64,000 bases of DNA from an uncultured Chloroflexia bacterium. GTDB taxonomy: Bacteria; Chloroflexota; Dehalococcoidia; DSTF01; JALHUB01. The first letter of the stretch is position 1, and each line of letters starts with the position of its first letter. The notes under the pieces are model-generated. The model saw only the letters and a program-made list of their open reading frames with translations. It was not told where the DNA came from and ran no database searches. The DNA lies in contig OY969814.1 of NCBI GenBank assembly GCA_963703345.1, positions 1,600,001 to 1,664,000 on the forward strand, written 5' to 3'. Of the stretch, positions 3,402 through 20,414 are shown in pieces. Made by a program: the position numbers and the translations under genes.

Positions 3402-3500
3402 GGGAGTGCAGGGGCCCTCCCCTGCCAGGGTTCAAGGGGTGCCCCCTTGAGAAACAACCTTTCGAGGGCGGGTGGGCGGGAAGAAGAGCGCCCATGTTGC
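3402..3500 (+). repeat. dispersed double-hairpin intergenic repeat, copy 1 (GGGAGTGCAG...CTGCC..GGGTTCAAGGGGTG.CCCCTTGA)
   Basis: Similar to 42431-42539 (+) and 35038-35089 (-). Confidence 0.75.
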
Positions 3501-3512
3501 CCGACGCGGCAG

Positions 3513-4511
3513 CTACCAGGCAGGGTCGAATGCGCCACCGTGGGTCAGCCTCGTCTGATCGCCGCCGTCGGCATTCATGATGTAGATCTCCGGGGGACCG
3601 TCCCGCCAGCTGGTGAAGGCGATCTTGAGGCCGTCGGGCGACCAGGATGGCTCAACATCCCCGGCGCTGTTGGTGAGCCTTGTCTGGCCGCTGCCATCGG
3701 CGTTCATCACGTAGATCTCTAAGTCGCCGTCCCGCTTGCTTTCGAAGGCGATCTTGGAGCCGTCGGGTGACCAGGTCGCCGAATAATCGTCGGCCGGGTT
3801 GTTGGTCAAGTTTCGCCGGTCGCTGCCATCGGCGTTCATCACGTAGATCTCCAAGTTGTCGTCCCGCTTGCGCTCGAAGGCGATCTTGGAGCCGTCGGGT
3901 GACCAGGCCGGCGAACGCTCATAATTGGCCGCTGGGTCGTTGGTTAGCCGTCTCTGGCCGCTGCCGTCGGCGTTCATCACGTAGACCTGCAAGTTGCCGC
4001 CGCGGTCCCTCTCGAAGGCGATCTTGGAGCCGTCGGGTGACCAGGTAGGCGAACTATCAAAATCGGCCGTTGGGTCGTTGGTTAACTGCGTCTGGCCGCT
4101 GCCGTCGGCGTTCATCACGTAGATGTTCAAGTTGCTCGTGAAGGCTATCCTCGACCCGTCCGGTGACCAGGCAGCATTTTTTGCGTCGGTGGCAAGGCGC
4201 TTCTGACCGCTACCGTCGGCATTCATCACGTAGATCTGTTCGTTGCCGTCCCGCTCGCTCACGAAGGCGATATGGTTCCTGTCCAGTAACCAGGTAGGGA
4301 ACCAATCGGTCGCTGGGTTGTTGGTGAGCCGGGTCTGACCGCTGCCGTCGGAGTTCATCACGTAGATCTCGTAGTTCTCGTCCCGGTCGCTCGTGAAGGC
4401 GATCTTCGCGGTCCGCCAGGACAAGCAGCCGGACAGAAGGAGAGGAAGGGCGGCGGTAAGAACAATGGCAATGACCAGCCCGTAGGGGGGACGGCTCTTT
4501 CCGTTGGACAT
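3513..4511 (-). CDS. TolB-like PD40/WD40 beta-propeller lipoprotein
   Basis: Lipobox LLSGC; repeated [10 protein letters not shown]...[10 protein letters not shown] units. Confidence 0.85.
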
Positions 4512-4576: not shown

Positions 4577-4750
4577 GTGCCACTTCCCCCTCGCAAGCCC
4601 GCCCTGGATATGCTGTAATAGCCTCGACAGGCCGTCGCCCGCCCACAGACGACCGCCGGCACGGCCGAAATCGCCCATCTCGACGGTCAATTGTCTAAAA
4701 CGCACCCTTACAGACTCACCAAACCACAACTTTTTCAAAACAAATACAAT
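4577..4750 (+). repeat. ~175-bp dispersed element, copy A (GTGCCACTTC...CACAACTTTTTCAAAACAAATACAAT)
   Basis: Same first 10 nt and 63/71 identical 3' nt as copy B at 18059-18241 (-). Confidence 0.8.
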
Positions 4751-4832
4751 CATAGCGCCGTCCCGCCAAGCGCCCTACAATGGAAGTAGCGGCGCCCGCC
4801 CCATCGACCGGCGGCCCGCCCGGAGGCCAGCC

Positions 4833-5078
4833 ATGACCAGCAAGAAACAGCCCGAAGAGCCCCTCGAAGAGCGCCTGCGCCACCGCCTGGAGTCCTTCCG
4901 ACAGTTCGTCCAGGAGTGCCAGGCCTGCCAGACCGAGGCTCCCGCCCACTACCAGTACTGCGCCCACTGCGGCTCCCGACTCTCCACCCAGTGCCCCGGC
5001 TGCGGCAACCCGCTGCCCCCCAAAGGCGCCCGCTACTGCCCTCACTGCGGCATGGAGATTCCCGCTGAGACCGACTGA
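4833..5078 (+). CDS. double zinc ribbon protein
   Basis: Four CxxC pairs; GGAGG RBS. Confidence 0.8.
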   Translation: MTSKKQPEEPLEERLRHRLESFRQFVQECQACQTEAPAHYQYCAHCGSRLSTQCPGCGNPLPPKGARYCPHCGMEIPAETD

Positions 5079-5157
5079 AGGGGCTCGCGGCAGCGAGAAG
5101 GTGCAGGCGCGCCTGCCCGTAGAGCATCGACCTGCCCCATGCTACACTGACTCTGAG

Positions 5158-6543
5158 ATGCTTCCGACCAACACCGTCCGCGACCTCCAGCGCATCGCCG
5201 GCGCCGACAACGTCCTCGTCGCGCCCGAAGACCTCCTCGTCTACGAGTACGACGCCACCATCGAGCGCGGCCTCCCCGACGCCGTCGTCCTTCCCGCCAC
5301 AACCCAGGAAGTCGCCGCCGTCGTCCGCCTGGCCTCGGAGCGCAGCATAGCCATCGTCCCGCGCGGCTCCGGCACCGGCCTCTCCGGCGGCAGCGTGCCC
5401 TCGGAGGGCGGCATCGCTCTCGTCCTCACTCGCATGAACCACATCCTGGAGCTCGACCCCGTCAACCGCATCGCCGTCGTCGAAGCCGGCGTCATCAACT
5501 TCGAGATCGACCGCGCCGCCCGCAAGCACGGCCTCTTCTTCGCGCCCGACCCGTCGAGCTACAAGTCCTGCACCATAGGCGGCAACGTCGCCGAGAACGC
5601 CGGCGGGCCGCACTGCCTGGCGTATGGCGTCACCAGCAACCACGTCCTCGGCCTCGAAGTCGTCCTCGCCGATGGCAGCATCGTCGAAGTCGGCGGCCGC
5701 CTCCGCGACCAGCCCGGCTACGACCTCACCGGCCTCATCGTCGGCTCCGAAGGCACCCTCTGCGTCGTCACCAAGGTCATCGTGCGCCTGCTGCCCGTGC
5801 CGGAGACCGGCTACACCCTCGTCGCCCAGTTCAAGGAAGTCGAAGACGCCGCCAACGCCGTCTCCCAGATGATCGCCTCCGGCATCGTGCCCCAGTGCAT
5901 GGAGGTCATGCAGTTCGACGCGATCGCCCGTCTCTTCTCCGCCGGCGCCGAGCCCGAAGTGACCGCCAGCATGATCGTCGAGGTGGAAGGCCTGCGCGAA
6001 GACGTCGCGGAGCTGGGCCCGGCCGTCCGCGAGATAATCGAGTCGAACCGCGCCGCCAGCATAAACGTAGCGAAGGACGACGCTGAGCGCGAGCAGATCT
6101 GGGCGATGCGGCGCGCTGCTGCAGTCATCATGGGGCGCATCGCCCCCAACGCCTACGTCATCGACGGCGTCTGCCCGCGCACGAAGCTGCCGCAACTGCT
6201 GCGCCAGGCCTCGGACATCGCGAAGAAGTACGACCTGCTCCACGCGGCCGCCTTCCACGCCGGCGACGGCAACCTGCACCCACAGTTCGTCTTCGACGCC
6301 TCCCAGCCGGGCGTCGTCGAGCGAGTCGTCGCCGCCGCGGGCGAGATCCTGCACGCCTGCGTCGATGCCGGCGGCAGCATCACCGGCGAGCACGGCGTCG
6401 GCCTAGAGAAGCGTCAACACCTCCGTCTAATGTTCAACGGCGCCGACCTCGCCGCCATGAAGAAGCTGCGCGCCGCATTCGGTGCCCACCTCTTGAACCC
6501 GGGAAAGCTGTTTCCCCAGGAAGCCGCGGTTGTCGCGCCATGA
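5158..6543 (+). CDS. glcD: FAD-linked oxidase, glycolate oxidase subunit GlcD-like
   Basis: PRGSGTGLSGG, PDPSS, GGNVAENAGG, HAGDGNLHP, GEHGVG. Confidence 0.85.
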   Translation: MLPTNTVRDLQRIAGADNVLVAPEDLLVYEYDATIERGLPDAVVLPATTQEVAAVVRLASERSIAIVPRGSGTGLSGGSVPSEGGIALVLTRMNHILELDPVNRIAVVEAGVINFEIDRAARKHGLFFAPDPSSYKSCTIGGNVAENAGGPHCLAYGVTSNHVLGLEVVLADGSIVEVGGRLRDQPGYDLTGLIVGSEGTLCVVTKVIVRLLPVPETGYTLVAQFKEVEDAANAVSQMIASGIVPQCMEVMQFDAIARLFSAGAEPEVTASMIVEVEGLREDVAELGPAVREIIESNRAASINVAKDDAEREQIWAMRRAAAVIMGRIAPNAYVIDGVCPRTKLPQLLRQASDIAKKYDLLHAAAFHAGDGNLHPQFVFDASQPGVVERVVAAAGEILHACVDAGGSITGEHGVGLEKRQHLRLMFNGADLAAMKKLRAAFGAHLLNPGKLFPQEAAVVAP

Positions 6544-7862
6544 GCAGCAACGGCACCCTCAAAGCGATCAAGGCCGCCGCGCCGAAAGCGGATATCGCGC
6601 CGCAACGCCGGCTCCTCGACTACGTTGTCAACGGCCTGACGCCACAGATCGCCGTTTCGCCCCGCAACGCCACCGAGACCGCGGCCATCCTCGCAGCGGC
6701 GGCCAAGTGCGACGCCGTCGTTATTCCCTGGGGCGGCGGGACCACGATGGCTACCGGCGCCACTCCCGAGCGCTACGACGTCGCCCTCGACCTCACACGC
6801 CTCAACGCAATCGTCGAGTACGTCCCCGACGACCTGACCGTCGCCGTGCAGACGGGAATTCGCCTGCAGGACCTGCAGGAGCGCCTGGCGAAGAGAGGTC
6901 AGTACCTGCCGCTCGATCCGCCGCTGCCGCATCGCGCCACTATAGGCGGCATCGTCGCTTCCAACGCAGGCGGGCCGGCGCGACACGCTCACGGCTGGCC
7001 CCGCGATTGGCTGCTCGGCCTGAAGGTCGCCCTGCCCGATGGGAGCGTCGTCAAGTCCGGCGGACGAGTCGTCAAGAACGTCGCCGGCTATGACACGACC
7101 AAGCTGCTTGCCGGCTCATTCGGCAGCCTGGGCGTCATAGTCGAAGCCGCCTTCAAGGTGATGCCCCTGCCGCCAGCTCGCGCGACCCTGGCGGCTTTCT
7201 TTCCTTCGGCCTCTGCCGCCGCTCGCGCCGCGCTGAGACTGAATTCACGCAACCTCCGCGTCGAATCGCTCGACGTGCTCAATCACGCGGCTGCTGTGGC
7301 GACACTCCCTGCCGGCATCGACTACCCGGGAGGTGCCTGCCTGCTCGTCGCCGCGGCCGGGAATAGCAGTGCCGTTGAGAGGACGTTGTACGAGGCGACC
7401 GAGATTCGCAACGACGACGGGGCCGTGGGCGTTCGCCTCTCGTCCGAGCAGGCAGAGTCAACCTGGCAGCAGGTGCGGGCGCTCTCGACGCAGACGCCCG
7501 ACGCTGCGCTGCTTCTGCGAGCCGCCGCATTTCCTTCTCACGTTGCGTCGTTCTTGGAATCGGCGGAGTCGACGGCGGCGGAACGTAGCCTGCCGCTGCG
7601 GCTGGACGCGCGCCCGGCGCTTGGCGCTGTGCACTGCCGTCTGGAAGCCGCGCTGGACGATCAGGCGGAGCAACTCGTCCGCGATCTCCGGCGGCTGGCG
7701 CAGGAGCGCGGCGGCGGCCTTGTCGTCGAGCAGTGCGCCGTGGATTTGAAGGAGCGGATCGATGTCTGGGGCGGAAACGGCACCGGGCTGATGAAAAGCG
7801 TCAAGGACGCCATCGACCCGCTCGGCACGCTCAGTCGAGGCCGCTTCGTGGGAGGGTTGTAG
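6540..7862 (+). CDS. glcE: FAD-binding subunit, GlcE-like
   Basis: ATIGGIVA, SGGRVVKNVAGYD; ATGA overlap with glcD. Confidence 0.8.
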   Translation: MSSNGTLKAIKAAAPKADIAPQRRLLDYVVNGLTPQIAVSPRNATETAAILAAAAKCDAVVIPWGGGTTMATGATPERYDVALDLTRLNAIVEYVPDDLTVAVQTGIRLQDLQERLAKRGQYLPLDPPLPHRATIGGIVASNAGGPARHAHGWPRDWLLGLKVALPDGSVVKSGGRVVKNVAGYDTTKLLAGSFGSLGVIVEAAFKVMPLPPARATLAAFFPSASAAARAALRLNSRNLRVESLDVLNHAAAVATLPAGIDYPGGACLLVAAAGNSSAVERTLYEATEIRNDDGAVGVRLSSEQAESTWQQVRALSTQTPDAALLLRAAAFPSHVASFLESAESTAAERSLPLRLDARPALGAVHCRLEAALDDQAEQLVRDLRRLAQERGGGLVVEQCAVDLKERIDVWGGNGTGLMKSVKDAIDPLGTLSRGRFVGGL

Positions 7863-7866
7863 CGCG

Positions 7867-9219
7867 GTGACGGCATTGCAGACAGACCGCAATTGCGACG
7901 CGCCGGCCCTCGAGGACCTCCAGCGCTGCGTCCGTTGCGGCTACTGCCTCACTGACTGCCCAACTTACGTCGAGCTGGGCCACGAAGCGGAGTCGCCGCG
8001 AGGACGGCTTCATCTCATCGATGCCATGGTCCGCGGACGCGTCAGCGCTACGCCTGAGCTTCTGGCGCACCTCGATCGCTGCGTTCAGTGTCGCGCCTGC
8101 GAGACTGCCTGCCCCTCCGGCGTCGCCTTCGGGCGCATAATGGAACGGGGGCGCGCCGCCGTACTGAGAGCCGGAAACGGGCCTTTGAGCTGGCGAGTTC
8201 GGGCGTCGATGGCCGGCCTCTTGCTGCCTTACCCGCAGCGTGTTCGCTTTGCGGCGGCGACGCTGCGCTTCTATCAGCGCTCCGGACTCCAGCGCGTCGT
8301 TCGAGGGAGCGGCATCTTGAGGCTGTTCCCCGGCCATCTGGATGAAATCGAGCAGTTCCTTCCGTGGCTGCCCAACGCCGTCCCTCCTTTGCAGGCAGTG
8401 TGGCCCTCAGCCGAAGCGCCGACGCATCGCGTCGCCCTGCTCGGCGGCTGCGTGACTCCCGTGCTCTACCCGAACCTGAACGACGCGACGCTGCGCGTTC
8501 TCCTACGAAACGGATGCGAAGCTATAGTCCCTTCCGAGCAGACCTGCTGCGGCGCGCTGCACGTCCATGCCGGCGATCTGAAGTCGGCCAGACGCCTCGC
8601 CCGCCGGAATATCGACGCATTCCTATCGCTCGGCGTCGAGGCTGTCGTCGTCAACGCGGCCGGCTGCGGCTCGACCATGAAGGAATACGGCCATCTCTTG
8701 AAGGACGATCCGGAATACGCGGAGAAAGCCACCGCCTTCTCGGCGCTCGTGAAGGACATCAGCGAGTACCTAGTTGCCCTGCCCTTCCGCGCCGAGCTGG
8801 GCACGGTCCCGGGCCGCGTCACTTACCAGGACTCGTGTCACCTGGCGCACGCGCAGGGGGTGAGAGCGCAGCCGCGCGCCATCCTGCAAGCGATTCCGGG
8901 GCTCGAGTTCGTCGAGATGCCTCAGGCTGATCGTTGCTGCGGCAGCGGCGGCGTCTACAACCTGACGCAGCCGCAGATCTCCTGGCGACTACTGCGGGAG
9001 AAGATGAAGACGGTCGCCGAGACAAGGGCCGACATCGTTGCGACCGCAAACACCGGCTGCATGATGCAGTTGGAGGCCGGCCTGCGACGCTTCGGGCCGC
9101 GGAAGACCCAGATGGCGCACGTGGTCGAGCTCCTGGACGAGGCATACCGCGCCCTCGACCGCGAAAGCAGGAGCCGGCTAGCCGCCGACGTTCCGCACAA
9201 ACACCTCGACGCGGTCTAG
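7867..9219 (+). CDS. glcF: Fe-S subunit, GlcF-like (2x4Fe-4S plus CCG domains)
   Basis: CxxCGxCxxxCP twice, two CCG motifs, ANTGC. Confidence 0.85.
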   Translation: MTALQTDRNCDAPALEDLQRCVRCGYCLTDCPTYVELGHEAESPRGRLHLIDAMVRGRVSATPELLAHLDRCVQCRACETACPSGVAFGRIMERGRAAVLRAGNGPLSWRVRASMAGLLLPYPQRVRFAAATLRFYQRSGLQRVVRGSGILRLFPGHLDEIEQFLPWLPNAVPPLQAVWPSAEAPTHRVALLGGCVTPVLYPNLNDATLRVLLRNGCEAIVPSEQTCCGALHVHAGDLKSARRLARRNIDAFLSLGVEAVVVNAAGCGSTMKEYGHLLKDDPEYAEKATAFSALVKDISEYLVALPFRAELGTVPGRVTYQDSCHLAHAQGVRAQPRAILQAIPGLEFVEMPQADRCCGSGGVYNLTQPQISWRLLREKMKTVAETRADIVATANTGCMMQLEAGLRRFGPRKTQMAHVVELLDEAYRALDRESRSRLAADVPHKHLDAV

Positions 9220-10758
9220 CTGATCGGCCAAGGGCAGCGACCCATCCAGCCGCAAGCGTGAGCCTTCCGGCAGCTCCGACAGCGGCTCCGTTCGCTTCAG
9301 TTGCGCCTGATAGACTTCCCAGCGGCCATCCGATGGGCTCCACACCGCGCTCCGCCGGCGTTGCAGCCTTTCGCGCACCAGCGCTTCCGTCGGTACGCAC
9401 TCAACTGCCAAGAATCGCACGCCGGCCCGCTCGGCAAAGTCCCTCGCCTGCTCCCGCGTTTTGCGCGCCAGATAGGAAGCATCCAGAATCACAGGCCTCC
9501 CCCAGCTCAAGAAGGGCGCCGCCTGAAGCAGCATCTCGGCGTAGGTCAACTCCGTCATCTCCGGCGAATAGATGCCTGAATCGATAGGCTCTGCCTGCGA
9601 TCGCCTGGGATCGAGACCGGCCAGCTTCTTGCGGGTAACATCGGAAGAGATCACCACCGCCCCCAGTCGGCTGGCCAGGGCATGTGCCAGGTAGCTCTTG
9701 CCGCTGCCCGTCACGCCGACCATGGCGATTAGGGCCGGACGCACGGAATGTGAGGCGTACTCTTCGGCCAGCGCGAAGTAGCGTCGAGCGCCTTCCGCGG
9801 CCGCCTCCTTCTGCTCGACGGGTATCTCCGGCTGGTCCAGCTGGAACCCGTCCACCTTGCCCCTCACGAATGCCCGATAGCATTTGTAGAAATGGAGGAC
9901 GAGCGGCAGCGTTGTGTCGAGCGACTGCGCCAGATAGAGGCCGACCATTTCGTCGGACAGCACGGGATGGCCGCGGAAATCCACATCCATCGCCAAGAAG
10001 GCGAGGTCCGACGCGGTGTCTGCGTATCGGAAGCGCTCATTGAACTCGACGCAGTCGAAGACGCAGATGCCGTCCTTGAAACAGACAGCGTTTGTGCGCA
10101 AGTCGCCGTGGCAATCGCGGATCCGGCCGTCTTTGACGCGGTTGTCCAGCAACCAGGTATCTTGGGCCAGAAAGCAGTTGACGTAGGAGCGTATCTTTTC
10201 GAACTGGTCGCGAGAGATCGTCCGTCCGACGTACGGCTCGCTTTGGTCGAAGTTCTCGCGCCAGTTGGCGGCAACCGCGTCCGGTTTCCCGAATGACTGG
10301 ATGTAGTCGTTGGTCTCCGCTTGGGCATGAAACGCCACTAGCTTCCCGGTCAGTCGCTCCAGCATGTCGCTCGTAATCGCGTCCTGTTCGAGTAGGCGCT
10401 CCATCATGCGCTCCTGCGGCAGGCGCTTCATCTTGACGGCGTAGTCGACCACCTCGCCGGTTCCATCGAGAGACACCGTGTCGCTCTTCACGGTGACGGC
10501 CACGACGCCCAGATAGGCATCGGGGCACAACCTCCGATTCAGCCGCACCTCTTCCTCGCAGTAGAATTTCCGCTTTTCCAGCGTCGTGTAATCGAGAAAG
10601 CCCATGTCGACCGGCTTCTTGACTTTGTAGACGTACTCGCCGGCCAGGAGAACGTAGGAGATGTGGGTTTGAATCAGCTCGACGCGTTCGACTGGATGAG
10701 GGTATGCCGACGGAAGTAGGAGCGCCTCCACATGCGGCGGCAGCCGTCCCTGAGCCAT
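9178..10758 (-). CDS. aminoglycoside-phosphotransferase-like kinase fused to a P-loop AAA_33 domain
   Basis: QTHIS, KVKKPV, CHGDL, DCVEFN, GVTGSGKS, SSDVTRK. Confidence 0.85.
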   Translation of the reverse strand: MAQGRLPPHVEALLLPSAYPHPVERVELIQTHISYVLLAGEYVYKVKKPVDMGFLDYTTLEKRKFYCEEEVRLNRRLCPDAYLGVVAVTVKSDTVSLDGTGEVVDYAVKMKRLPQERMMERLLEQDAITSDMLERLTGKLVAFHAQAETNDYIQSFGKPDAVAANWRENFDQSEPYVGRTISRDQFEKIRSYVNCFLAQDTWLLDNRVKDGRIRDCHGDLRTNAVCFKDGICVFDCVEFNERFRYADTASDLAFLAMDVDFRGHPVLSDEMVGLYLAQSLDTTLPLVLHFYKCYRAFVRGKVDGFQLDQPEIPVEQKEAAAEGARRYFALAEEYASHSVRPALIAMVGVTGSGKSYLAHALASRLGAVVISSDVTRKKLAGLDPRRSQAEPIDSGIYSPEMTELTYAEMLLQAAPFLSWGRPVILDASYLARKTREQARDFAERAGVRFLAVECVPTEALVRERLQRRRSAVWSPSDGRWEVYQAQLKRTEPLSELPEGSRLRLDGSLPLADQLDRVEVFVRNVGG

Positions 10759-10871
10759 TCCTTGCGCTCCTTCGCACTGAAATCGACAGCCGGGGTCAAC
10801 CCAAATATATGGGGATTCCGCAGAATAGTCCACCGGGGAAGGTCGAAGTGGCTAGGAGGAGGTTGCGACGA

Positions 10872-11537
10872 CTACCTCTTGCGCCGGACGGTCCGCCTGA
10901 CAGTGGGCGGGACGACAGGTTGCGTCGCTGGCTGCGGCGACGAGACAAGGGCGGAGACGAGGGCGCTCAACACCTGCGACGACTCCGTCTGACCCGGCAC
11001 GACATTGGAACGAAGCGCCAGGCCGTCGTGAGCGGCTAGCACGAGACTCGCCGCGACGGCCGGTCGCGCCGCCAGCATGACGAGTCCCTCGCGTTCCATT
11101 CTTTCGAAAGCCTTCTCCAGTAGCCGGGTCCAGCTCACGTAGGCGTCCTGCAGCGAATTCCGCACCTTCTCGTTTCGATGCGACTGCGCCCAGATCTCCG
11201 GCAGAAGCAGCCGCCATTGGGCGTCGGTATCGTCACGATACACCAGCGACTCCACGGCCTTCACCAGAGACAGCGCTGTGTCGTCGCCGAGGTCCTCGAA
11301 CTGGCGTAGCCGGCGCGTATGCTCCTCTATCCAGAGAGACAGGAGCTCCAGGAGCACCTCTTCTTTAGAGTCGAAGTGGAAGTAGTACGCCCCCTTCGAG
11401 TAGCCAGCGGCAAGGGAGATCTCTTCGACCGTCGCGTGGTCGTAGCCTTGCTCAGCAAAGACGCGAAGCGCCGCCTCGACGAGTTTTGTCCTCGTCTGTT
11501 GGCGTTGCTGCTGTCTGGCGGCTCTCGCTTCGTTCAA
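10872..11537 (-). CDS. TetR/AcrR family transcriptional regulator
   Basis: HTH ATVEEISLAAGYSKGAYYFHFDSKEE. Confidence 0.9.
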   Translation of the reverse strand: MNEARAARQQQRQQTRTKLVEAALRVFAEQGYDHATVEEISLAAGYSKGAYYFHFDSKEEVLLELLSLWIEEHTRRLRQFEDLGDDTALSLVKAVESLVYRDDTDAQWRLLLPEIWAQSHRNEKVRNSLQDAYVSWTRLLEKAFERMEREGLVMLAARPAVAASLVLAAHDGLALRSNVVPGQTESSQVLSALVSALVSSPQPATQPVVPPTVRRTVRRKR

Positions 11538-11970
11538 GCCACGATACCTCTGTTTGATTCTCGACCGGTCAGCGCCTCACTGACAGCCCACCCCGACGCG
11601 CCCATCAATCTCCATATGAAGGGCCGAGAAGTGAGTGAGGCTACGCTTTGAACCGGGCCAGCGGAACGGATGCGAATGCAGCGAAAGCGTTGCGAGCCGG
11701 CCTGGAGGACGTGAAACCGAAGAGATCCTGCCTCGGCTAGGCTGCTTGACCACCGCTCATCGCATGCGACGCAGCCAATGGCGTCTGAATCCCACCCCTC
11801 GGTCCCACGATAGCAGGTCGCCGCCAATTCTTCCAAGACGGCGACATCGTCCGTTTGGTAGATTTTTCGGCTCCTCAGGATATGTTTCAGGAAGTGTCCC
11901 GTTATTGCTTTGGTGGTTTGTATAGGCCACCGTCCCGCCACCGCGGGTCAGCAGCTTAACCAGAGAAAAA

Positions 11971-12069
11971 GGCACCGACAAAGGCAAACTCCTCGAAAGA
12001 GGGGGACGCAAAGCCGCAGACCTAAAGCTTGCTGTCGCAGAAGCTATGGCCGCTGGGCTTCCGAAAGCC
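11971..12069 (+). promoter_or_regulatory. c-di-GMP-I (GEMM) riboswitch aptamer
   Basis: GGCAAA-CTCCTC-GAAA-GAGGGG-GACGCAAAGCC...CCTAA...TATGG...GGGCTTCCGAA: GNRA tetraloop, its receptor and the conserved junctions. Confidence 0.92.
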
Positions 12070-12132
12070 TTGCCGAAACGGCGTCGGAGAGGACGCCTTC
12101 GGCGCGCATCAATTCCCCCTTCCCAGGTCCTT

Positions 12133-12170
12133 GCCGTCGTCGGTGACGCTGCCGACGACGGCGCTTTTTG
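12133..12170 (+). terminator. intrinsic terminator, likely the riboswitch expression platform
   Basis: GCCGTCGTCGG/CCGACGACGGC stem followed by GCTTTTTG, between the aptamer and the sigma ATG. Confidence 0.8.
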
Positions 12171-12207
12171 TGCCTCCGGCAGCCTCGATTGAGAAACGGA
12201 GCGCGAG

Positions 12208-12933
12208 ATGAGAGAAGACCGGAATCAGATGATCGTCAACCACCTGCCCTTGGTGGCTTTCGTGGTGAACCGCATGCCCAGCGAGGGTACGGGCGCTGTC
12301 GGCATCGACCGCGAAGACGCCATGAGCTACGGCGTCGAGGGGCTCATCCACGCCGTCGACGCCTATGACCCCGAGCGCGGGACCACCTTCGCCAGCTTTG
12401 CCATCCAGCGGATCCGCGGCTCGGTGCTGGACGCTGTTCGCAAGCAGGATCCGCTGCCGCGCTCACTGCGCAGGAACGCCAAGGAGATCGAGCATGCGTC
12501 GCAGGAGTTGGCGGTACAGTTGGGCCGCTGGCCGACCCGGAAGGAGATCGCATTCAAGCTGGGAATCCCCCTATCGCGGCTCCAGTACCTTCTCAGCCGA
12601 GCAAGCTCGCGGCTTGTCTCTCTCGAGTACTCGCTGGAAGACCGTCCGAACTACGGTGCCGGCCATGCGCTGGACCCGGTGGATGAGGACATCCTATCCG
12701 ACCCGGCGCGCGCGGCTGAGCAAAAAGCGGCGCTCTCGCAGCTTTCGCAGGCCGTGAACTCTCTTTGTCGAAGGGACAGGGACATCCTTCGCCTGCGTTA
12801 CGAGGAGTGCCGGCCATTCCACGAGATCGGCGAGATGCTGGAGCTGTCGGAATCGAGGGTCTGTCAGCTTCACAAGCGGATCATCACCCTTCTGCGTCGG
12901 GAGATGCGTCCCCAACTGGAAGAGGCGGCTTGA
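12208..12933 (+). CDS. FliA/WhiG (sigma-28) family RNA polymerase sigma factor
   Basis: GLIHAVDAYDPERGTTFASFAIQRIRGSVLDAVRKQDPLPRS; region 4 EIGEMLELSESRVCQLH. Confidence 0.9.
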   Translation: MREDRNQMIVNHLPLVAFVVNRMPSEGTGAVGIDREDAMSYGVEGLIHAVDAYDPERGTTFASFAIQRIRGSVLDAVRKQDPLPRSLRRNAKEIEHASQELAVQLGRWPTRKEIAFKLGIPLSRLQYLLSRASSRLVSLEYSLEDRPNYGAGHALDPVDEDILSDPARAAEQKAALSQLSQAVNSLCRRDRDILRLRYEECRPFHEIGEMLELSESRVCQLHKRIITLLRREMRPQLEEAA

Positions 12934-12983
12934 CCTTGAGACGCGCAAGGCTTTGGTCTAGACATTTCGCTCTCGATGCAGAC

Positions 12984-13011
12984 TCATCACTGCGGTCTAA
13001 ACTGCCGATAA
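12984..13011 (+). promoter_or_regulatory. putative sigma-28 promoter for the HD-GYP gene
   Basis: Perfect -10 GCCGATAA at 13004-13011; weak -35 (TCAT, 16 nt upstream). Confidence 0.55.
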
Positions 13012-13174
13012 TACTGCGAAGAAGGATGCTCAACCTCCATCCTGCCTTCGAATCGCTTTCTTCCGGACGGTTGTGTCCTGAGGGGAACGAATGTCCGGTT
13101 ACGGGAATCTGTCTGTTCTGCACGAGATGTAGTGCGCGGGCTGCCCCAAGCGCCCGCGAAGTGAGTCTTATGTC

Positions 13175-14659
13175 ATGCAGAATGGTGTAGAGCCAGAAGA
13201 CGAATCGAACGGCAGCAAGACGGAACGCCCGCCGCTAGTGTTGGTCCATTCCACGGCCGGTCCCGCCGCGCATGCTGACGCTGATCGCCCCCATGTTCCG
13301 GCGCCCACTTCCCTGCCGGTACAGGCGCGCATCTTCTCAATCGTCGTCTTCCTCTCGGGCCTGGCGCTCATAGGCTACTACGCGCCGCAAGTGTCTCATT
13401 CCGGCCTCGTAGGGCTCATCCTACTGGGGCTTATGGCCGCCGCTTCGGAACGGTTGAGCATCATCGTTTACGGCGAGAGCTGGGTCTCAATAAGCTTCGT
13501 CTGTCTCTTCGCCATTGCAGCACTTTACGGCCCCCCAGGCATCGTCGTGGCGACACCCCTCGCGATTCTGAGCCTGCACTTTCCGCGGCGGATGCTTCCA
13601 GATCGGCTGATGTTCAACTCGGGCAACTCGCTCCTCGCCGATGTTGCATCAGCACTGATCCTCACGTCTTTCCTGGCGGGCGGCTCGCAAATCACGCTGT
13701 CCGCAAGAGTGTTTGGCGTTGCCGTAGCTGCCGCGGCCGCGAACTATGGCGTGAGGTCTGTCCTGATATCGACTGTGGGCGGCTTGGCGTCGGGTCAACG
13801 CCCGTGGACGTTCTGGCGGCAGAACTTCCAGTGGCTGCTCCCCCACTACATCCTCTTCGGTTTCCTTGGTTTGGCGCTGGCGGTAGCTTATCAGCAGATC
13901 GGCGTCACCGGCCTGCTCGCCTTTGCCGCTCCGCCGCTGATGATGCGTCTTGCCATGAAGCAATACGTCGACAAGACTACTCGCAGCGTCGCGATGCTGA
14001 GGCGCAAGAACGACCAGCTCTTGAAGGCAAATCGCGAAATCCTGGCGATGAGCGCGCGCCTCAAAGAGACATATGACGCCACCCTGGAGGCGCTAGCGGC
14101 GGCGCTGGACGCCAGGGACAGCGAGACCGGCGGGCACTCCAGCCGCGTCACGGTCTACACAATGGATATGGCGCGGGAACTGGGAATAGAAGAACGGAGC
14201 GACGTGTGGCTGGATATCGAGCGCGCCTCGCTGCTTCACGACGTAGGCAAGATCGGCGTTTCCGACGCTATCCTGAACAAGCCTGGCCCGTTGACCTCTG
14301 AGGAGTGGCAACAGATGAGAAAGCATCCGGCCATAGGCTACGATATGCTGAAGGACGTAAAGTTCCTTTCAACTGCGGCGGAGATCGTCTACGCGCACCA
14401 CGAAAGATTCGACGGCAAAGGCTATCCGGTCGGCCTCCAGGGCGAAGACGTACCCCTAGGCGCGCGCATATTCGCCGTCGCTGACGCTTTCGACGCGATG
14501 ACCTCGAACAGGCCCTATCGCCGCGCCCTTTCGGTGGACAAGGCGCGGGAGGAGATCCTGGGCAATTCGGGCAGTCAGTTTGATCCCAGAGTGGTTCAGG
14601 CTTTCCTGCAGTGCCTTCAGGGCTGGGCGGATGACTTGAGGGAAAGGCAGGCCGCCTAG
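13175..14659 (+). CDS. membrane-anchored HD-GYP c-di-GMP phosphodiesterase
   Basis: Multi-TM N-terminus; GHSSRV, LLHDVGK, HHERFDGKGYP, DAMTSNRPYR all intact; start codon uncertain. Confidence 0.9.
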   Translation: MQNGVEPEDESNGSKTERPPLVLVHSTAGPAAHADADRPHVPAPTSLPVQARIFSIVVFLSGLALIGYYAPQVSHSGLVGLILLGLMAAASERLSIIVYGESWVSISFVCLFAIAALYGPPGIVVATPLAILSLHFPRRMLPDRLMFNSGNSLLADVASALILTSFLAGGSQITLSARVFGVAVAAAAANYGVRSVLISTVGGLASGQRPWTFWRQNFQWLLPHYILFGFLGLALAVAYQQIGVTGLLAFAAPPLMMRLAMKQYVDKTTRSVAMLRRKNDQLLKANREILAMSARLKETYDATLEALAAALDARDSETGGHSSRVTVYTMDMARELGIEERSDVWLDIERASLLHDVGKIGVSDAILNKPGPLTSEEWQQMRKHPAIGYDMLKDVKFLSTAAEIVYAHHERFDGKGYPVGLQGEDVPLGARIFAVADAFDAMTSNRPYRRALSVDKAREEILGNSGSQFDPRVVQAFLQCLQGWADDLRERQAA

Positions 14660-14886
14660 CAGGCAACGAATTGCCTGCGCTCCGATGCGATGACCGTTGA
14701 GGCGAGGAAGAGAGGAGTGTCGTAGGCCCCTGGACGATGACGAGTCTGGCTGGACCTATGCGAATCGTCCGAAGGCCAAGACGGTCGGTGCTATCGAGTC
14801 AATGCCCTGGGTTTGTTGAGCCGGCCCGCTTTTCAGGAGGGCGCGGGCGCCATCTGTAGCTCAAAGAGTCTTCTGAGGCGTCCCTC

Positions 14887-14910
14887 CTAGAACCAGTGCA
14901 TCTTCTTCAT
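14887..14910 (-). CDS. 7-aa micro-ORF MKKMHWF
   Basis: CCAGGAGG-ccacc-ATG AAG AAG ATG CAC TGG TTC TAG, downstream of a strong promoter. Confidence 0.45.
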   Translation of the reverse strand: MKKMHWF

Positions 14911-14985
14911 GGTGGCCTCCTGGCAGTGCGCGGCACACGTGGGTGCCGTCCGGATGTGGTTCCTTCCTCTCCACTCGCCTCAACA

Positions 14986-15007
14986 ACATACCGACCCGTC
15001 GGTATGT
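14986..15007. promoter_or_regulatory. perfect 22-bp operator-like palindrome ACATACCGAC-CC-GTCGGTATGT
   Basis: 10-bp arms directly abutting the -10 box of the minus-strand promoter. Confidence 0.75.
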
Positions 15008-15035
15008 ATTATGACACCCGCTTGTAACTTGTCAA
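15008..15035 (-). promoter_or_regulatory. sigma70 promoter
   Basis: TTGACA-16-CATAAT with extended -10 TG. Confidence 0.75.
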
Positions 15036-15208
15036 GGTTCAAATAGGGCCAACCTGAAGCTCAAAGGGAAACGCAGACCCCAGGATACCCGCGAGGAACC
15101 CGACGGTGCAGGAGACACGCCCTAGTCTAAGGGCACAAGGGCTGGCAGGATCAGCGTTCTTGAGCGACTGGTGGGGGGCGAGTTGCTGTCAGGGATGCGA
15201 GGGAAAGC

Positions 15209-16093
15209 TTATCCAGAGGCGCTCGTCCAGCGTTCGCGGCGGCGGTCTCGGTCTTGCTTCGCGGTCTCCAGATTGTGACGCGCTTGCACGAGCAGGTCGA
15301 GAGGGTTGTTGTCGGCGTCTTGAGCTGAGGCGATTCCGGAGCAGACGCCCACCCATAGCGTTATCGTCTGGCCTTCCACGTTCACGGCAACCGGCTTTCG
15401 CGTCACATAACGCTCCAGGCGGCGCAGGAACTTCGAGGCGTCCTCCTGGCTGCATTCGAGCAGGATCAGAGCGAACTCGTCGTCGCCGAGGCGGGCAGCG
15501 ATGTCGGATGACCGCTTTGTTAGCTCCAGCAGGTCCGCTATGTGTTTGAGTACGGCATCTCCCGCCGCCTCGCCATACGCCTCGTTGACCGAAGACAGGT
15601 TGTTCACGTCGAAAACGGCGAGAGAGAGCGTGGAGGCAGTGCGCTGCATGCGCTTGAACTCGTCGCGAAGGCGCAGCCGGAAGTACTCCTCGCCCGGCAG
15701 ACCGGTCACGTCGTCGCGCATCGACGGCGAGAGCGTCCTTTCCAAGCCTTCCGCCGTCTTCTTCGCCCGGTAGATGGCGAAGAGACTGGTGATTACGACC
15801 GCAACCATCAGAAGCTCGACGGCCGCTGCCAAATGCGGAGCCTGCCTTCTCTCATCGAGGAACGAAAGCGAGGCGCCGGCGAGCACAGATATGAGCGCAG
15901 CGATGAGATATCGCCGCAGATCCTGCCATACCTGCGCCCTGCCCGCCGGTGGGCCTTTGGAAGAGAGCTTCTGCAACGTGAGCGCGCGCGTATCGCGCCA
16001 GTCTTCGCTGGCGTCAGCGCGAAGCTCATCTTGAAGCGGCCTCGGCAGGGAATGAGTATCCTCTGGTTCGGAGATGTGTCTGTCTTCGAGCAA
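15209..16093 (-). CDS. 2-TM protein with degenerate GGDEF domain (GDDEF) and intact RxxD I-site
   Basis: DDVTGLP, DVNNLSSVNEAYG, KRSSDIAARLGDDEF; TTG start with GGAGG. Confidence 0.85.
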   Translation of the reverse strand: MLEDRHISEPEDTHSLPRPLQDELRADASEDWRDTRALTLQKLSSKGPPAGRAQVWQDLRRYLIAALISVLAGASLSFLDERRQAPHLAAAVELLMVAVVITSLFAIYRAKKTAEGLERTLSPSMRDDVTGLPGEEYFRLRLRDEFKRMQRTASTLSLAVFDVNNLSSVNEAYGEAAGDAVLKHIADLLELTKRSSDIAARLGDDEFALILLECSQEDASKFLRRLERYVTRKPVAVNVEGQTITLWVGVCSGIASAQDADNNPLDLLVQARHNLETAKQDRDRRRERWTSASG

Positions 16094-16120
16094 GCCGATC
16101 CTCCAACACCGTCAGTTAGA

Positions 16121-16147
16121 TTATCGACCGGCCGGACGACAGGTTTA
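16121..16147 (-). promoter_or_regulatory. sigma-28 promoter for the GGDEF gene
   Basis: TAAA-N15-GTCGATAA, one mismatch to the TAAA-N15-GCCGATAA consensus. Confidence 0.8.
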
Positions 16148-16195
16148 GCTTAGATTCATGGACGCGGCCCGCCTTTCTCAGCGAAGGAGGCGGCG

Positions 16196-16223
16196 TTGAC
16201 ACCGGCAGGGACGGTAGTATTAT
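16196..16223 (+). promoter_or_regulatory. sigma70-like promoter
   Basis: TTGACA-16-TATTAT upstream of the ORF at 16250. Confidence 0.6.
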
Positions 16224-16249
16224 GGATTGGAGAGAACACGAGGCGATAA

Positions 16250-16795
16250 ATGCAAATCGACTGGAGCAAGACGATAGACGATATCCTGTCGCACAAGATA
16301 TCGTGCCTTCGCTGCGGCCGCTTGGAGACGTCCGTTTGTGTTGGCTATTCGCGATCGCCGGCGGTGTCTGACTACGCGCCGCGCTGCCTCGATTGCAGTC
16401 GACGAGAAGGATGCGACGCGCGGAAGCTAGTCGTTCTCTGCCAATCCTGCGCGGAGGAGTTGCATGTCCGGGCGAAGCAGGCGGACGAAGAAGCCATGAT
16501 GGCCCTGCTTATCGACGACTGCCGCAAGGACCTCGAGGACTGCCTCGACTACCTCACCGACTACTGGCAAGAAGAGCTGAACGTCGACCCGGACGATGAG
16601 GAGCACCGGCTGGAAGGGGTTGCGCCAGACGTGTTTGCCGAGGAGAGCGCCTGGCGGGCCCGCCTTGAAGAAGAGTACTTGTCGTATCACCGCTGGTTCC
16701 GGGAGCGCGGCCTTCGCCTGCCTGAGCCGGGTTGGCGCTCCGACTACGTCGAAGAGATCGTCGATCTCGGTTACACCACGCTACTGGGAGACTAA
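16250..16795 (+). CDS. hypothetical protein with Cys-rich (Zn-binding) N-terminus and acidic helical C-terminus
   Basis: CLRC, CLDC, CQSC; GAGG RBS and its own promoter. Confidence 0.7.
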   Translation: MQIDWSKTIDDILSHKISCLRCGRLETSVCVGYSRSPAVSDYAPRCLDCSRREGCDARKLVVLCQSCAEELHVRAKQADEEAMMALLIDDCRKDLEDCLDYLTDYWQEELNVDPDDEEHRLEGVAPDVFAEESAWRARLEEEYLSYHRWFRERGLRLPEPGWRSDYVEEIVDLGYTTLLGD

Positions 16796-16801
16796 GGAGC
16801 C

Positions 16802-18013
16802 TCAGGCCCGCTCCGTGCGCTCGTCGGGCGTCGAGGAGCCTGAGGCCGCCTTCACGGGAAGAGCGCTTCTCCCCTCCAACACCAGCTCTATCCGCTGCCG
16901 CAGCTCGTCGAGTCCCCAGCCGTTCTGCGCCGAGATGAGGAGCGCGTCCGGCCGCTCGTAGCTGAGGCTAGCGCGCTGCTCTCGCAACTCCACGAGGCCG
17001 CGAATCGGGTCGCCGTTGCGACGGGTGAGCAGGTCCACCTTATTTAGAGCCGTCACCACGGGCTTTCCGGCCAGCTCGAGCTCGCGCAGAGTCTCCAGCA
17101 CGGTCTCGCCCTGTTGCGCCGCGTCGGGGTGAGTGATATCGACGACATGGGCGAGGACGTCAGCGGCGGACAGCTCTTCCAGCGTGGCGCGGAAGGCGGC
17201 GACGAGCTGCGCCGGCAGCTTCTGAATGAACCCCACAGTGTCGGAGAGGAGGACGCTGCGGCGTTCGGACAGCTTGACGCGGCGGGTGAGCGGGTCGAGC
17301 GTGGCGAAGAGCTTGTCCTCGGTGAAGACGTCGGCGCCGGAGAGGGCGCGCATGAGGGTGCTCTTGCCGGCGTTGGTATAGCCGACGAGGGCGACGACGG
17401 GCACTCCGGCGCGCTCCCGGCGGCGTCGGTAGAGGGCGCGCTGGCGCCTGACGGCCTCGATCTCGCGCTTGAGGCGGGCGATGCGGTCGCGGACGAGGCG
17501 TCGGTCGGTCTCAAGCTGGGTCTCGCCGGGGCCACGGGTGCCGATGGCGCCTTCGAGTCGCTCCAGGTGACTCCACTGGCCGGCGAGTCGCGGCAGGAGG
17601 TACTGGTACTGCGCCAGCTCGACCTGGAGGCGGCCTTCACGGGTGCGGGCGCGTCGGGCGAAGATGTCGAGGATGAGGGCGGTGCGGTCGAGGACCTTGA
17701 CGCCGAGGGCGTCTTCGAGGTTGCGCTGCTGATTCGGGCTGAGCTCGTCGTCGAACACGACGAGGGAGTAGTCGAACTCGGAGCGCTGGGCCTTCAGCTC
17801 CGCCAGCTTGCCCTTGCCGACGTAGTGCCCGGGATGGATGCTTCCCAGCTTCTGGACGGCGCGGCCGACGACGCGGGCGCCGGCGGTATCGGCCAGGAGG
17901 GCGAGCTCATCGAGGGAGGACTGGCTGGAGAAGGGCGCAGGCTTGCCCTTGACCTCGACGGCGACGAGGTAGGCCCGCTCGATGGGCTCGGCTGTGGGGT
18001 AGGTCTTTGCCGT
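16802..18013 (-). CDS. hflX: GTPase HflX, with a probable non-canonical ACG start
   Basis: [25 protein letters not shown]; the frame extends 85 codons beyond the tracked start through [24 protein letters not shown]. Confidence 0.9.
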
Positions 18014-18058
18014 CGGGGTGTGCCTCCTGTGCCTCCATTATAGGGGCAGCGGCTTCGA

Positions 18059-18241
18059 ATTGTATTTGTTTTGAAAAAGTTGTGATCTTGTGAAGCTGTA
18101 AGGGTGCGTTTTGGGTAATTGACCGTCGAAAAGGCGGTTTTGGCGGCGCGGCGCGCGGGCCGCGGAAGGTCGGGGATCGTCGAAGGGCGCATAGGGTCAT
18201 TAGAGCACGGCGCGTCGAGCTTCTCAAGGGAGAAGTGGCAC
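18059..18241 (-). repeat. ~180-bp dispersed element, copy B
   Basis: Matches copy A at both ends and copy C over the first 57 nt (55/57). Confidence 0.8.
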
Positions 18242-19105
18242 CTAGTGCGTCCAGGTCACGCCGCCGTCGGTCGTGGTCCAGTTCCCTTCCGGTGTGACGA
18301 CTGTCCCGTGCTGGGAGTCCGTGAATGTGATGGACGTCACCGGGACTGCGGGCGGCACCACGGTGACAGCAGTCCAGGTCACGCCGCCGTCCTGCGAGCG
18401 GAACAGGTTATTGCCGGGGCTGTTGAGCCCCATCCAGCCCTTGCTCGCATCGAGAAACAAGATCAGCACGACTCCGTTTCCGTTCGGCAGGTCGCCAACG
18501 CCCGGCTCGGGTGTCGGATTGCCAAGCGTCGTGCGGCTGATCAGCGTCCAGGCGGCGCCGCCGTTGGTGGTGCGGAAGAGGTATTTCTCCATACTGCCGG
18601 CCGCCCCACCGTCATTGCAGAGCTGCCACTTAATGGCCGCATTGAGGCTGAATGACGCGCCCGGTGTTAGCGTCTGGCCGAACAGCGACTTGAGGAGGGT
18701 GCAAGGCGGGGACGGCGTTCCGGACGGCGTGAGACCGAAGCCTTGGACCTCCCAAAAGCTAGAGAGATCGGCCAGGCTGGCGTTGGGGTTGTCGTTGTAC
18801 TGCACGAGTCTCGGCGCAGAGAGCGGATCATATCCGGGTGCGCTTACGTTGAAGGTGACCGGGCCGAGTGCCGGTGTTTGCCCTGCCGCTGAGTCGAACG
18901 AATACAAGCCCCAGCTGTTCGTCGTAGCCGCTCCCGTGTGCCCGTAGGAATCCACGTACGAGACGTTTGCTCCCACTAGCGGCGAATTCGTTTGGCTGTC
19001 CAGCACCGTTCCCCATAAGCAACCAGACGTCACAAGCGCTAAGGCGGCGGTGAGGAGGCTAACGAGGAAGAACAAGCAGCGCAGTCGGTTGGTTGCTGAC
19101 ATCAT
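18242..19105 (-). CDS. exported lipoprotein with carboxypeptidase-regulatory-like domain and BNR/Asp-box repeats
   Basis: Lipobox VTSGC; GTVLDSQTNSPLVGANV; RTTNGGAAW, RSQDGGVTW, TTDGGVTW. Confidence 0.75.
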   Translation of the reverse strand: MMSATNRLRCLFFLVSLLTAALALVTSGCLWGTVLDSQTNSPLVGANVSYVDSYGHTGAATTNSWGLYSFDSAAGQTPALGPVTFNVSAPGYDPLSAPRLVQYNDNPNASLADLSSFWEVQGFGLTPSGTPSPPCTLLKSLFGQTLTPGASFSLNAAIKWQLCNDGGAAGSMEKYLFRTTNGGAAWTLISRTTLGNPTPEPGVGDLPNGNGVVLILFLDASKGWMGLNSPGNNLFRSQDGGVTWTAVTVVPPAVPVTSITFTDSQHGTVVTPEGNWTTTDGGVTWTH

Positions 19106-19206
19106 GTCGCACCCCCTTCCTATGGCAGGCATTCTACCTCATCTCCGGCGGGGACAAAAGGTCTGCGAGCACCGGGCTGGTGCGCTGTCAGGGGCGCCGT
19201 CTGCAA

Positions 19207-19307
19207 GGCGGCGCGGTCCGCGGGCCGCGGATCGTCGGGGGTTTATCGGCGGGCGCATAGGGTCATTAGAGCACGACGCGTCGAGCTTCTCAAGGGGGAA
19301 GTGGCAC
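19207..19307 (-). repeat. dispersed element, copy C (5' half only)
   Basis: Direct repeat of the 5' part of copy B, on the other side of the lipoprotein gene. Confidence 0.8.
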
Positions 19308-19328: not shown

Positions 19329-20411
19329 CTACTGAATCGCGTGTAAACGCTTGCCGTTGGGTTGGTAGACTCTGTACAGGTCTGCCTTGTTGAGGGCCAA
19401 TAGACGGCAAAGATCATCGTGAGAATAGCCCAAGCTGTCACAATGATATGCGACTATATCACGCAATAACTCGGGCGGCTCTGAGGGCGGATCAAGTTCT
19501 TCTGGTTCTCGCAAGCGATAACCTGCTTTGCTCAGTTGCATCATCATACGCTGCTTCTCATACGCTGAGATTGCGCCCGCGGTAGAAGCCCGCATTATTA
19601 GCGCTTGCATCGACATCTTCCAGTATTCCTTGAGTGGCGCGAGCCTTTTGAGGCTGAGGTTGAAAAACTGAGGCCTGATCTCATGCTTTGGTGCTAAAAA
19701 CTCGCCAGCGAATAGATGGGCGTCCGGTTCCATCTGTGGATACGAGCCAGAGGTAGAGTGCATGACTATATGCCCTAACTCGTGGGCGAGTGCAAAACGC
19801 CAGCGATCAGGGGGAATCTTGGAACTCATATAGAAGATCGGAGGCGTATTCGACCCCCATCGGCTGAAACCATCAACATCAGGTGTACTGAAATCGCAAC
19901 TAAGAACTATTCCGCCAGCAGATTCGATGACCTTAGTCATGCTGAAAATTGGCCCTGGCGGAATTCGCAACGTTGCTCTCACAGTGCGCGCTATCTTCTC
20001 CGGATTTCCCTCGAATTCGTTTATGTCCAGCACAGGAAATGGCTCTTGGGGCATCTTATCCCACGAGCGTAAGAGAGCCGCTATTTCGAAACGTCGGATT
20101 TCGGCTTCGGCGTGAATCCTATGAAGGGCCATAGCACTCGCCCTTGCCTTCTTCCGGTGATATATCTCGGTAATCCCAGGTCCACCAACCTCCTCTCGCC
20201 GCAAAAAGAAACCGGCTGGATAGTCGAGGGCTTCAGCCAGCGCGCTCAATCTGTCGCCCGATAAAGGCTCAAGGCCGGTCTCTACTTTTGAGACCGTTCC
20301 CTGAACCCATCTGAGTTTGACGGCAAGTGCGGCTTGTGAGATTCCTCTAGACTGGCGCGCCAGCGTGATCATTTCGGGATTGGCCCGTTCGGGCGTAGGT
20401 TCTGCTGGCAA
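19329..20411 (-). CDS. XRE HTH fused to ImmA/IrrE metallopeptidase
   Basis: RQSRGISQAALA...VSKVETG; RFALAHELGH; low GC. Confidence 0.9.
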   Translation of the reverse strand: MPAEPTPERANPEMITLARQSRGISQAALAVKLRWVQGTVSKVETGLEPLSGDRLSALAEALDYPAGFFLRREEVGGPGITEIYHRKKARASAMALHRIHAEAEIRRFEIAALLRSWDKMPQEPFPVLDINEFEGNPEKIARTVRATLRIPPGPIFSMTKVIESAGGIVLSCDFSTPDVDGFSRWGSNTPPIFYMSSKIPPDRWRFALAHELGHIVMHSTSGSYPQMEPDAHLFAGEFLAPKHEIRPQFFNLSLKRLAPLKEYWKMSMQALIMRASTAGAISAYEKQRMMMQLSKAGYRLREPEELDPPSEPPELLRDIVAYHCDSLGYSHDDLCRLLALNKADLYRVYQPNGKRLHAIQ

Positions 20412-20414
20412 ACT

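Follow-up and report, generated by a model that had tools for sequence, protein, structure and literature searches.

Short promoter-bearing cassettes at accessory-gene junctions of a Chloroflexota genome: possible packaging-site-like elements of an inherited gene transfer agent-like particle

Three gene-less cassettes in the window

The window analysed here is a stretch of 64,000 nucleotides of a Chloroflexota genome, probably of the class Dehalococcoidia (contig OY969814.1, positions 1,600,001 to 1,664,000), and our subject is a short promoter-bearing cassette found in it as three gene-less copies, A, B and C. The genome (G000; relatives are likewise given G numbers) is a single 2.28-Mb contig (C1) with 64% GC. 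All three copies share the start GTGCCACTTC. Copy A (4577–4752, + strand) consists of the 5′ motif GTGCCAC followed by a −35 (4591–4596) and an extended −10 hexamer (4614–4619; together 4577–4619, +), a GC-rich filler and a type-1 3′ block (4680–4752, +) in which GGTCAAT, CAGA(C/T)TC, a T-tract, AAACAA and the terminal CAATCA are arranged at fixed spacing (−59, −36 and 0). Copy B (18057–18241, − strand) is located between the stop codon of a lipoprotein gene and the promoter of an hflX-type gene. Copy C (19207–19307, − strand) is a 5′ half only, with the 3′ block missing, and is 88% identical to B over 101 nt (E 5e-30). The −35 and −10 hexamers, 17 nt apart, are TCGCAA and TGTAAT in A and TTGAGA and TCTAAT in B and C.

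A first-pass annotation of this DNA had placed A at 4577–4750 (+), B at 18059–18241 (−) and C at 19207–19307 (−), with the same hexamers and common start, and re-reading the sequence bears this out. Over their final 71 nt, A and B agree at 63 positions, among them all of the last 26, B begins one base past the lipoprotein stop (18242) and C begins 21 nt past the XRE-peptidase stop (19329), all as it had described. Its ends hold as given, except that the conserved 3′ end extends to CAAT(C/T)A, that is, to 4752 in A and to 18057 in B. The junctions of B and C were spanned with no differences by short-read contigs of run X1, which may be the source sample.

Accessory genes for a SIR2_2 protein (2245–3294, +) and a PD40 beta-propeller protein (3513–4511, −) lie 5′ of A (2245–4511); this DNA varies among G000, G003, G006 and G008, with other content in G008 and partial overlap with G003. 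On the 3′ side of A are conserved genes for a double zinc ribbon protein and an FAD-linked oxidase (4833–6543, +). The 3′ side of B carries the hflX-type GTPase gene (16802–18040, −), which has one frame break in the assembly, possibly a long-read indel. On the 5′ side of C lies an accessory two-gene module (19329–21029, −), with a 204-amino-acid open reading frame (ORF) that has no Pfam or PHROG family and a gene with helix-turn-helix and Peptidase_M78 domains. This XRE/Peptidase_M78 module is 96% identical in G007 and is not present at the same site in G003 and G008.

The lipoprotein gene between B and C (18242–19132, −) encodes a secreted CarboxypepD_reg/BNR protein. Its C-terminal half is conserved in the genus, and its N-terminal half was replaced in G000 along with the arrival of C, a strain-specific copy absent in G007, G008, G003 and G002. 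It had been proposed that B and C enclose a captured gene cassette. The gene was present in all six genus relatives with sequence at this site, flanked there by B alone, and the reading of the interval as a captured cassette is therefore not supported. In addition, C is absent from G007, where the adjacent module is 96% identical, and no clean circle joint between B and C was seen in the reads, where the sole back-joint contained 34 foreign letters at a depth of 2.

A dispersed cassette family

Using profiles of the ends, we detected 7 type-1 and 13 type-2 3′ blocks at 19 loci of G000, one copy having both. The three copies first reported thus exist, but they belong to a far larger family. The profiles gave no matches at E≤0.01 in the shuffled or reversed genome; as they were built from the same copies, this only excludes chance. 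At 17 of the 19 loci, a GTG(C/T/A)C(A/G)Y motif lies 5–8 nt ahead of the −35 hexamer and the promoter lies 160–620 bp upstream of the block; motif and promoter were located by regular expression, and two of the 17 loci were added by eye. The cassettes are 160–620 bp long and have a general layout of a GTG(C/T/A)CAC motif with a promoter, a variable middle and a phased AT-rich block ending in CAATYA. Both block types contain CAAT, CAGATT or GAATCT, and A/T tracts at fixed spacing: in type 1, CAAT is found at −59 and 0 and CAGATT at −36, and in type 2, GAATCT is found at −42 and CAAT at −8 and 0. We looked for a copy in which a full type-2 end is followed by a full type-1 end and found none. An alignment of 14 copies contained no terminal inverted repeats, which agrees with the earlier description of a dispersed, unannotated family without such repeats and does not fit a miniature inverted-repeat transposable element (MITE).

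Four copies in G000 (C1:1665235, 1737003, 1168316 and 1183660) carry an ORF of about 100–125 amino acids, which frequently begins a few bases past the −10 hexamer and occupies the same slot as the variable middle of the short copies. Similarity between these middles and the ORF was not detectable, and it is from position alone that we infer A, B and C to be derived from the full form by internal deletion.

The cassettes persist at orthologous sites across the genus. The DNA of B matched 10 of 61 relatives, two of them marginally, and the B site is occupied in seven genus relatives, by type 1 in G002, G003, G007 and G008 and by type 2 in G001, G004 and G006. Orthologues of A were found in G002, G003, G007 and G008, with a type-2 version in G006. 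The ORF was detected in 9/9 genomes of the genus, 56/93 of the order and 30/201 of the class, where the complete genome G172 contains at least 24 copies. Many distant ORF loci, read by eye, have TG(C/A)CAY ahead of the gene and CAATCA repeats after it. The taxa of the ORF neighbours in the ESM Atlas also suggest membership of Chloroflexota.

Three further observations concern the surroundings of the copies. A second dispersed repeat (the GGGGTGTCCCC hairpin family) often sits between cassette promoter and ORF (L060, L061, L063–L065 and others). A cassette at C1:1420144–1420355 of G000 (L175 region) is located immediately 5′ of what we take to be a dprA–topA–xerC-like cluster. A degenerate tRNA-like fragment (L044:9840–9916) lies immediately ahead of another copy, K.

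The cassette ORF

The ORF begins with MPRGGxRPGAGAPKGNLNALKTG, followed by helices, and has no Pfam family. Against the PHROG small terminase (terS) family phrog_1889, 23 of 24 ORF members matched at E≤0.1, and 29 of 113 matched PHROG terS at E≤0.01. The ORF thus bears a weak resemblance to phage small terminases, confined to the N-terminal motif. Eight viral-contig loci were found by this motif, and those read place the gene directly upstream of the large terminase gene (terL); none of the four ORF copies of G000 is near terL. The terS promoters on viral contigs (L203–L206) have a LexA-like box, then a conserved leader with GTGCCA and a long complementary stem. The cassette ORF, too, is accompanied by direct repeats and DNA with A/T tracts, in a position other than that in phage SPP1.

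Codon comparisons over 42 codons indicate that the ORF is under purifying selection. The dN/dS ratio was 0.03–0.18 for 10 pairs from the pccB-type group; other groups mostly had values of 0.2–0.5, reaching 0.88 between subfamilies. The search for the ORF returned 800 clusters, and the top 150 representatives were all 67–237 amino acids long, with no long parent. Predicted structures (pTM 0.27 and 0.36) were helical with no clear fold match. The ORF model gave no matches in BFVD at E≤0.001, and a PDB-wide structure search gave a best Z of 5.2, to unrelated helices, while a PDB sequence search found a designed repeat protein only. None of these comparisons favours or opposes a TerS identity. In the ESM Atlas the ORF fell among hypothetical Chloroflexota clusters, the nearest named family being PF10668 at 0.76, which we take as a lead only.

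A phage-head module with a common promoter motif

Beside a gene that we take to be dnaN, G000 contains a block of terS, terL, portal, scaffold, capsid and structural genes (C1:616800–646900; L043, L222, L223), and the gene order there is the same in G000, G002, G007 and G008. Capsid and portal matched PHROG at E 3e-72 and 2e-30, respectively. With a protein query, TerL of this module was found in 82 of 93 order genomes (a tally that takes in the unpublished G045), mostly as one intact copy; profile PF03237 missed it, and 3 of its 9 genus matches were other terminases. The resident TerS had no GAPKGNxNAxKxG motif in 21/21 matches among 23 loci, and we infer a DNA-binding role for this motif, which the cassette ORF carries. 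In five genomes of the genus the module itself contains a cassette: in G000, G002, G007 and G008, and at another spot in G001.

All three operon promoters of the module have GTGACAY-N6/8-TTGAC together with a LexA-like box, for which we assumed the consensus GAAC-N4-GTTC; the motif ahead of the −35 is thus of the kind that precedes the −35 of the cassettes. Among 246 TTGAC-N17/19-TAnnnT sites in G000, the upstream motif was present at four, three of them heading module operons. A looser scan gave 26 matches (12 cassettes, 2 module promoters and 12 others), against 2–7 in five shuffles. Two of the 12 others can be named: one (L041:15448–16346, +) is ahead of a TIM-barrel hydrolase-like gene, whose automatic GTA-like name (gene transfer agent) is a lead only, and the other (L260:6999–8381, −) is ahead of a small gene followed by a pair resembling an extracytoplasmic function sigma factor and its anti-sigma factor. 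It is possible that the genes under these two promoters are scattered members of a particle regulon.

Polarity of accessory DNA and movement of copies

To quantify the asymmetry of the flanks, G008 was compared with G000 over 1.21 Mb of G008 (about half of its genome, picked to include known copies) with crude gene calls. The 3′ flank aligned to G000 at all 14 copies and the 5′ flank was unaligned at 10 of them (10:0 by side), while 68 of 288 control junctions had unshared DNA (Fisher p 3e-4). The proposal that accessory genes lie on the GTGCCAC side thus holds, with variable DNA there at 10/14 copies and at 0/14 on the other side.

The copies also change and move. Species differ in end type, and often in ORF subfamily too, at six orthologous sites where the CAATYA junction is unchanged; slippage at the CAAT repeats could account for the changes of end type but not for the ORF swaps. 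In many cases this junction overlaps a convergent gene's stop codon, at loci that we take from their translations to be ftsK-, pccB- and proB-like (the dinB/imuB and dprA labels used here are assumed in the same way). A filled/empty pair without target loss was found at the proB-like locus. In the dinB/imuB-like gene of G000 and G008, a 3′ block alone (99 bp) is inserted in frame, and the site is empty in the 5/5 more distant relatives searched. G001 has a 3′ block alone between its scaffold and capsid genes, the site being empty in 4/4. There was no clear target-site duplication at the dinB/imuB-like or proB-like pairs, although the proB-like pair could share an AG dinucleotide. The suggestion that the element is a recombination site therefore stands insofar as copies act as points of recombination, by replacement at CAATYA, but an integron-type att site is not supported.

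Partial duplicates of the 3′ end of an aminotransferase gene lie between stacked accessory modules in G003 and G007 (window 21116–21200; L034:7692–7753; L035:9926–10011), which suggests that insertions on the far side of the B hotspot duplicated their target. Genes with YVTN repeats were found beside copies at four loci; as such genes form a large family of paralogs, we did not count this as sharing between loci. The gene 5′ of copy I (L038:10881–12908, +) encodes a repeat protein with a signal peptide and a Peptidase_S74 tail-fibre chaperone domain, and a paralog is located 5′ of copy J.

Cassettes as packaging-site-like elements

We favour, at a probability of roughly 0.45, the reading that A, B and C are gene-less satellite cassettes, similar to phage packaging (pac) sites, of a GTA-like particle that the host has inherited. 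Induction of the particle regulon through the LexA-like boxes would cause the cassette promoters to fire as well. The cassette protein would then bind the phased block and recruit the resident terminase, which would cut there, and DNA ends at the cassette would be packaged or repaired. In kin, such ends would recombine preferentially at resident copies, so that the copy and its 5′ DNA are replaced and the 3′ core gene is retained. Gene-less copies such as A and B would keep the cis sites and be served in trans. A more specific version, possible but doubtful, is a split terminase, in which the TerS of the domesticated GTA has lost DNA recognition and dozens of scattered, co-regulated mini-cassettes supply both the recognition part and the pac-like sites.

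This reading draws on the weak TerS match of the ORF and the selection on it, on an order-wide head module whose own TerS lacks the motif, and on the promoter motif that cassettes and module have in common. It also draws on the cassettes found within the module, the polarity of accessory DNA, the replacement of copies at CAATYA, the 3′ block inserted by itself and the make-up of SPP1 pac. Several points weigh against the pac-like reading. The homology to TerS is almost wholly one 20-residue motif, and an hhalign match of 97.4% is circular because the comparison set was itself found by that motif. The C-terminal part of the ORF, corresponding to the TerL-binding end of TerS, is not constant in length or frame. 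As far as the cited accounts describe them, the SPP1 repeats span the promoter and gene start, whereas the block repeats here follow the ORF, and classical in-situ packaging proceeds from terS in the downstream direction, so that the conserved side would be moved and not the variable side, which here is the 5′ one. The terL gene of G000 itself has a broken frame, and a 14-kb insert that carries a serine recombinase splits the portal gene, although the module is intact in G002 and G008. Module TerL occurs in 82/93 order genomes versus 56/93 for the ORF, with no ORF found in many TerL genomes, and a LexA-like box was present at only 3 of 18 cassette promoters. The polarity was measured in a single pair of genomes, using crude gene calls, and a less strict measure puts the background at 28–54%. 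Copies I and J are alike in 199 of 200 upstream bases while their ORFs differ (dS 0.39); such a 5′-end crossover is not predicted by a model of cutting at the 3′ end. Finally, variable DNA without any cassette was found at the pccB end in G001 and G005 and at the ftsK end in G006, and hotspots can therefore arise without a cassette.

Alternative explanations

The strongest competitor, which we regard as unlikely, is a selfish non-autonomous element derived from terS and mobilised in trans by a recombinase or rolling-circle enzyme, with a precise CAATYA end and one-ended capture of 5′ DNA, so that the particle is a matter of ancestry only. Such an element fits the precise 3′ junction, commonly placed on a convergent stop codon, the proB-like filled/empty pair without target loss, the insertions of a 3′ block only and the multiplication of the ORF in G172 (at least 24 copies). 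One fixed and one variable end also recall the one-ended transposition of the insertion sequence (IS) IS91, in the part of its description cited (PMC13181058). As in IS91/ISCR elements, again within that description, inverted repeats are lacking, one end is precise and the other varies with captured DNA; unlike in them, the junction is CAATYA rather than CTTG/GTTC, and the targets CTTG, GTTC or GTCC were not seen at the fixed end of 20 junctions. The Y1 transposase profile of IS200/IS605 elements (PF01797) had no match in the one genome G000, compared with 6 of 14 controls, and no reverse transcriptase was found in G000 with controls positive; the Y2 HUH profile (PF04986) likewise had no match in G000, but also none in the 14 controls. 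The first pass had asked whether a copy lies next to a recombinase or transposase or matches the end of a known IS. None of the six tyrosine recombinases of G000 adjoins a copy, the nearest being 4 kb off past two core genes, none of its four serine recombinases lies beside one, and the same applies to its sole IS110 (C1:1020232), where the end profiles had no match. No enzyme gene was seen beside any copy and no long parent ORF was found; moreover, a selfish element does not readily explain the orthologous persistence across the genus and the purifying selection on the ORF, and it leaves unexplained why gene-less copies keep the promoter motif of the module.

Quite improbable, in our view, is that the cassettes are domesticated regulatory islands (a promoter plus an AT-rich terminator or UP-like block) selected beside core genes, where 5′ insertions are harmless and replacement reflects gene conversion. 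Long persistence at orthologous sites and the existence of hotspots without cassettes would be expected, at ftsK and pccB a hairpin with T-runs in the type-1 block could serve as terminator of the convergent gene, and the genome carries natural-competence-type genes that we take to be dprA- and comM-like. Yet A and B have no hairpin and still keep CAAT, CAGATT and the A/T tracts at fixed spacing, and the insertions within a coding gene and within the capsid operon indicate movement, with the ORF under selection.

An integron-like att site with B–C as an excisable gene cassette is far less credible. It would account for B and C as direct repeats around one gene, for the real polarity and for the common upstream DNA of I and J, which extends up to the 5′ motif. 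However, the C-terminal half of the enclosed gene is conserved in the genus and elsewhere flanked by B alone, C lacks the 3′ block, the only back-joint in the reads is not clean, and we found neither an adjacent integrase nor a palindromic fold. The weakest proposal, a repeated non-coding RNA gene with a guide-like middle, has the promoter on each copy and the varying middle in its favour but is scarcely tenable, as 14 copies have a consensus fold of −0.43 kcal/mol with two-sided changes in 1/10 pairs, no Rfam match exists, and the middle is the ORF slot of full copies.

Comparison with known systems

The cassette lacks the defining traits of integron sites, MITEs, IS110, IS200/IS605 (in this genome), phage-inducible chromosomal islands (PICIs) and structured RNAs. 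According to the cited account, the pac site of SPP1 combines bent DNA with direct repeats at terS (PMC4737164). The cassettes resemble SPP1/SF6 pac, as described there, in that a gene of the small terminase kind has a promoter of its own and is accompanied by short direct repeats and A/T tracts, either within it or beside it. They differ in being stand-alone, in about 19 scattered copies, most of them gene-less, with the repeats at the 3′ end of the gene and no terL beside them; they are known as sequence alone.

The passages cited describe the TerS of the Rhodobacter capsulatus GTA (RcGTA) as lacking its DNA-binding domain (PMC6854486, PMC7947584). Within the scope of those passages, the present system is similar in having a host-inherited head module with a resident TerS without the N-terminal part. 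Head and packaging genes are kept at one chromosomal site, as in GTAs, although the frames are broken in G000. Unlike in RcGTA, dispersed cassettes that bear the promoter motif of the module encode the motif absent from TerS, in a different phylum and in a system known from its genes.

Similarly to Staphylococcus aureus pathogenicity islands (SaPIs) and other PICIs, a small element would lend a TerS-like specificity factor to the large terminase and capsid of another, and as in lateral transduction, accessory genes gather beside packaging starts, at least in the portion of the work cited, where classical in-situ packaging proceeds downstream of terS (PMC12829572). The cassettes, of just 160–620 bp, are not PICI/SaPI satellites: they have no integrase, pair of att sites or replication module, their helper would be a domesticated host module, and the variable DNA lies upstream.

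Other features of the window

An Rfam scan of the window found only an RNase P RNA gene (54636–55042, −) and a c-di-GMP-I riboswitch (11973–12065, +). The latter is located ahead of a sigma factor gene that we presume to be FliA-like, with HD-GYP-like and GGDEF genes nearby.

Significance

In the open-access literature searched, we found no description of this cassette or of a Dehalococcoidia GTA; what is new here is the TerS complementarity, the common promoter motif, the measured polarity and the clean empty sites. Random packaging is the defining trait of GTAs, and to our knowledge no discrete packaging start is known for one. If the pac-like reading is true, the cassettes would be discrete start points for a GTA-like particle and the smallest satellite yet, and they would account for the polarized accessory hotspots of this lineage. 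A cassette acting as a packaging start would steer which neighbouring genes move between cells. Should the terminase indeed be split, random transfer would become address-directed, and the accessory genes beside each cassette would be renewed. Should packaging play no part, the cassettes are still a dispersed family new to the literature searched; they lack inverted repeats, have no known mobilising enzyme and mark genome plasticity throughout a Chloroflexota order.

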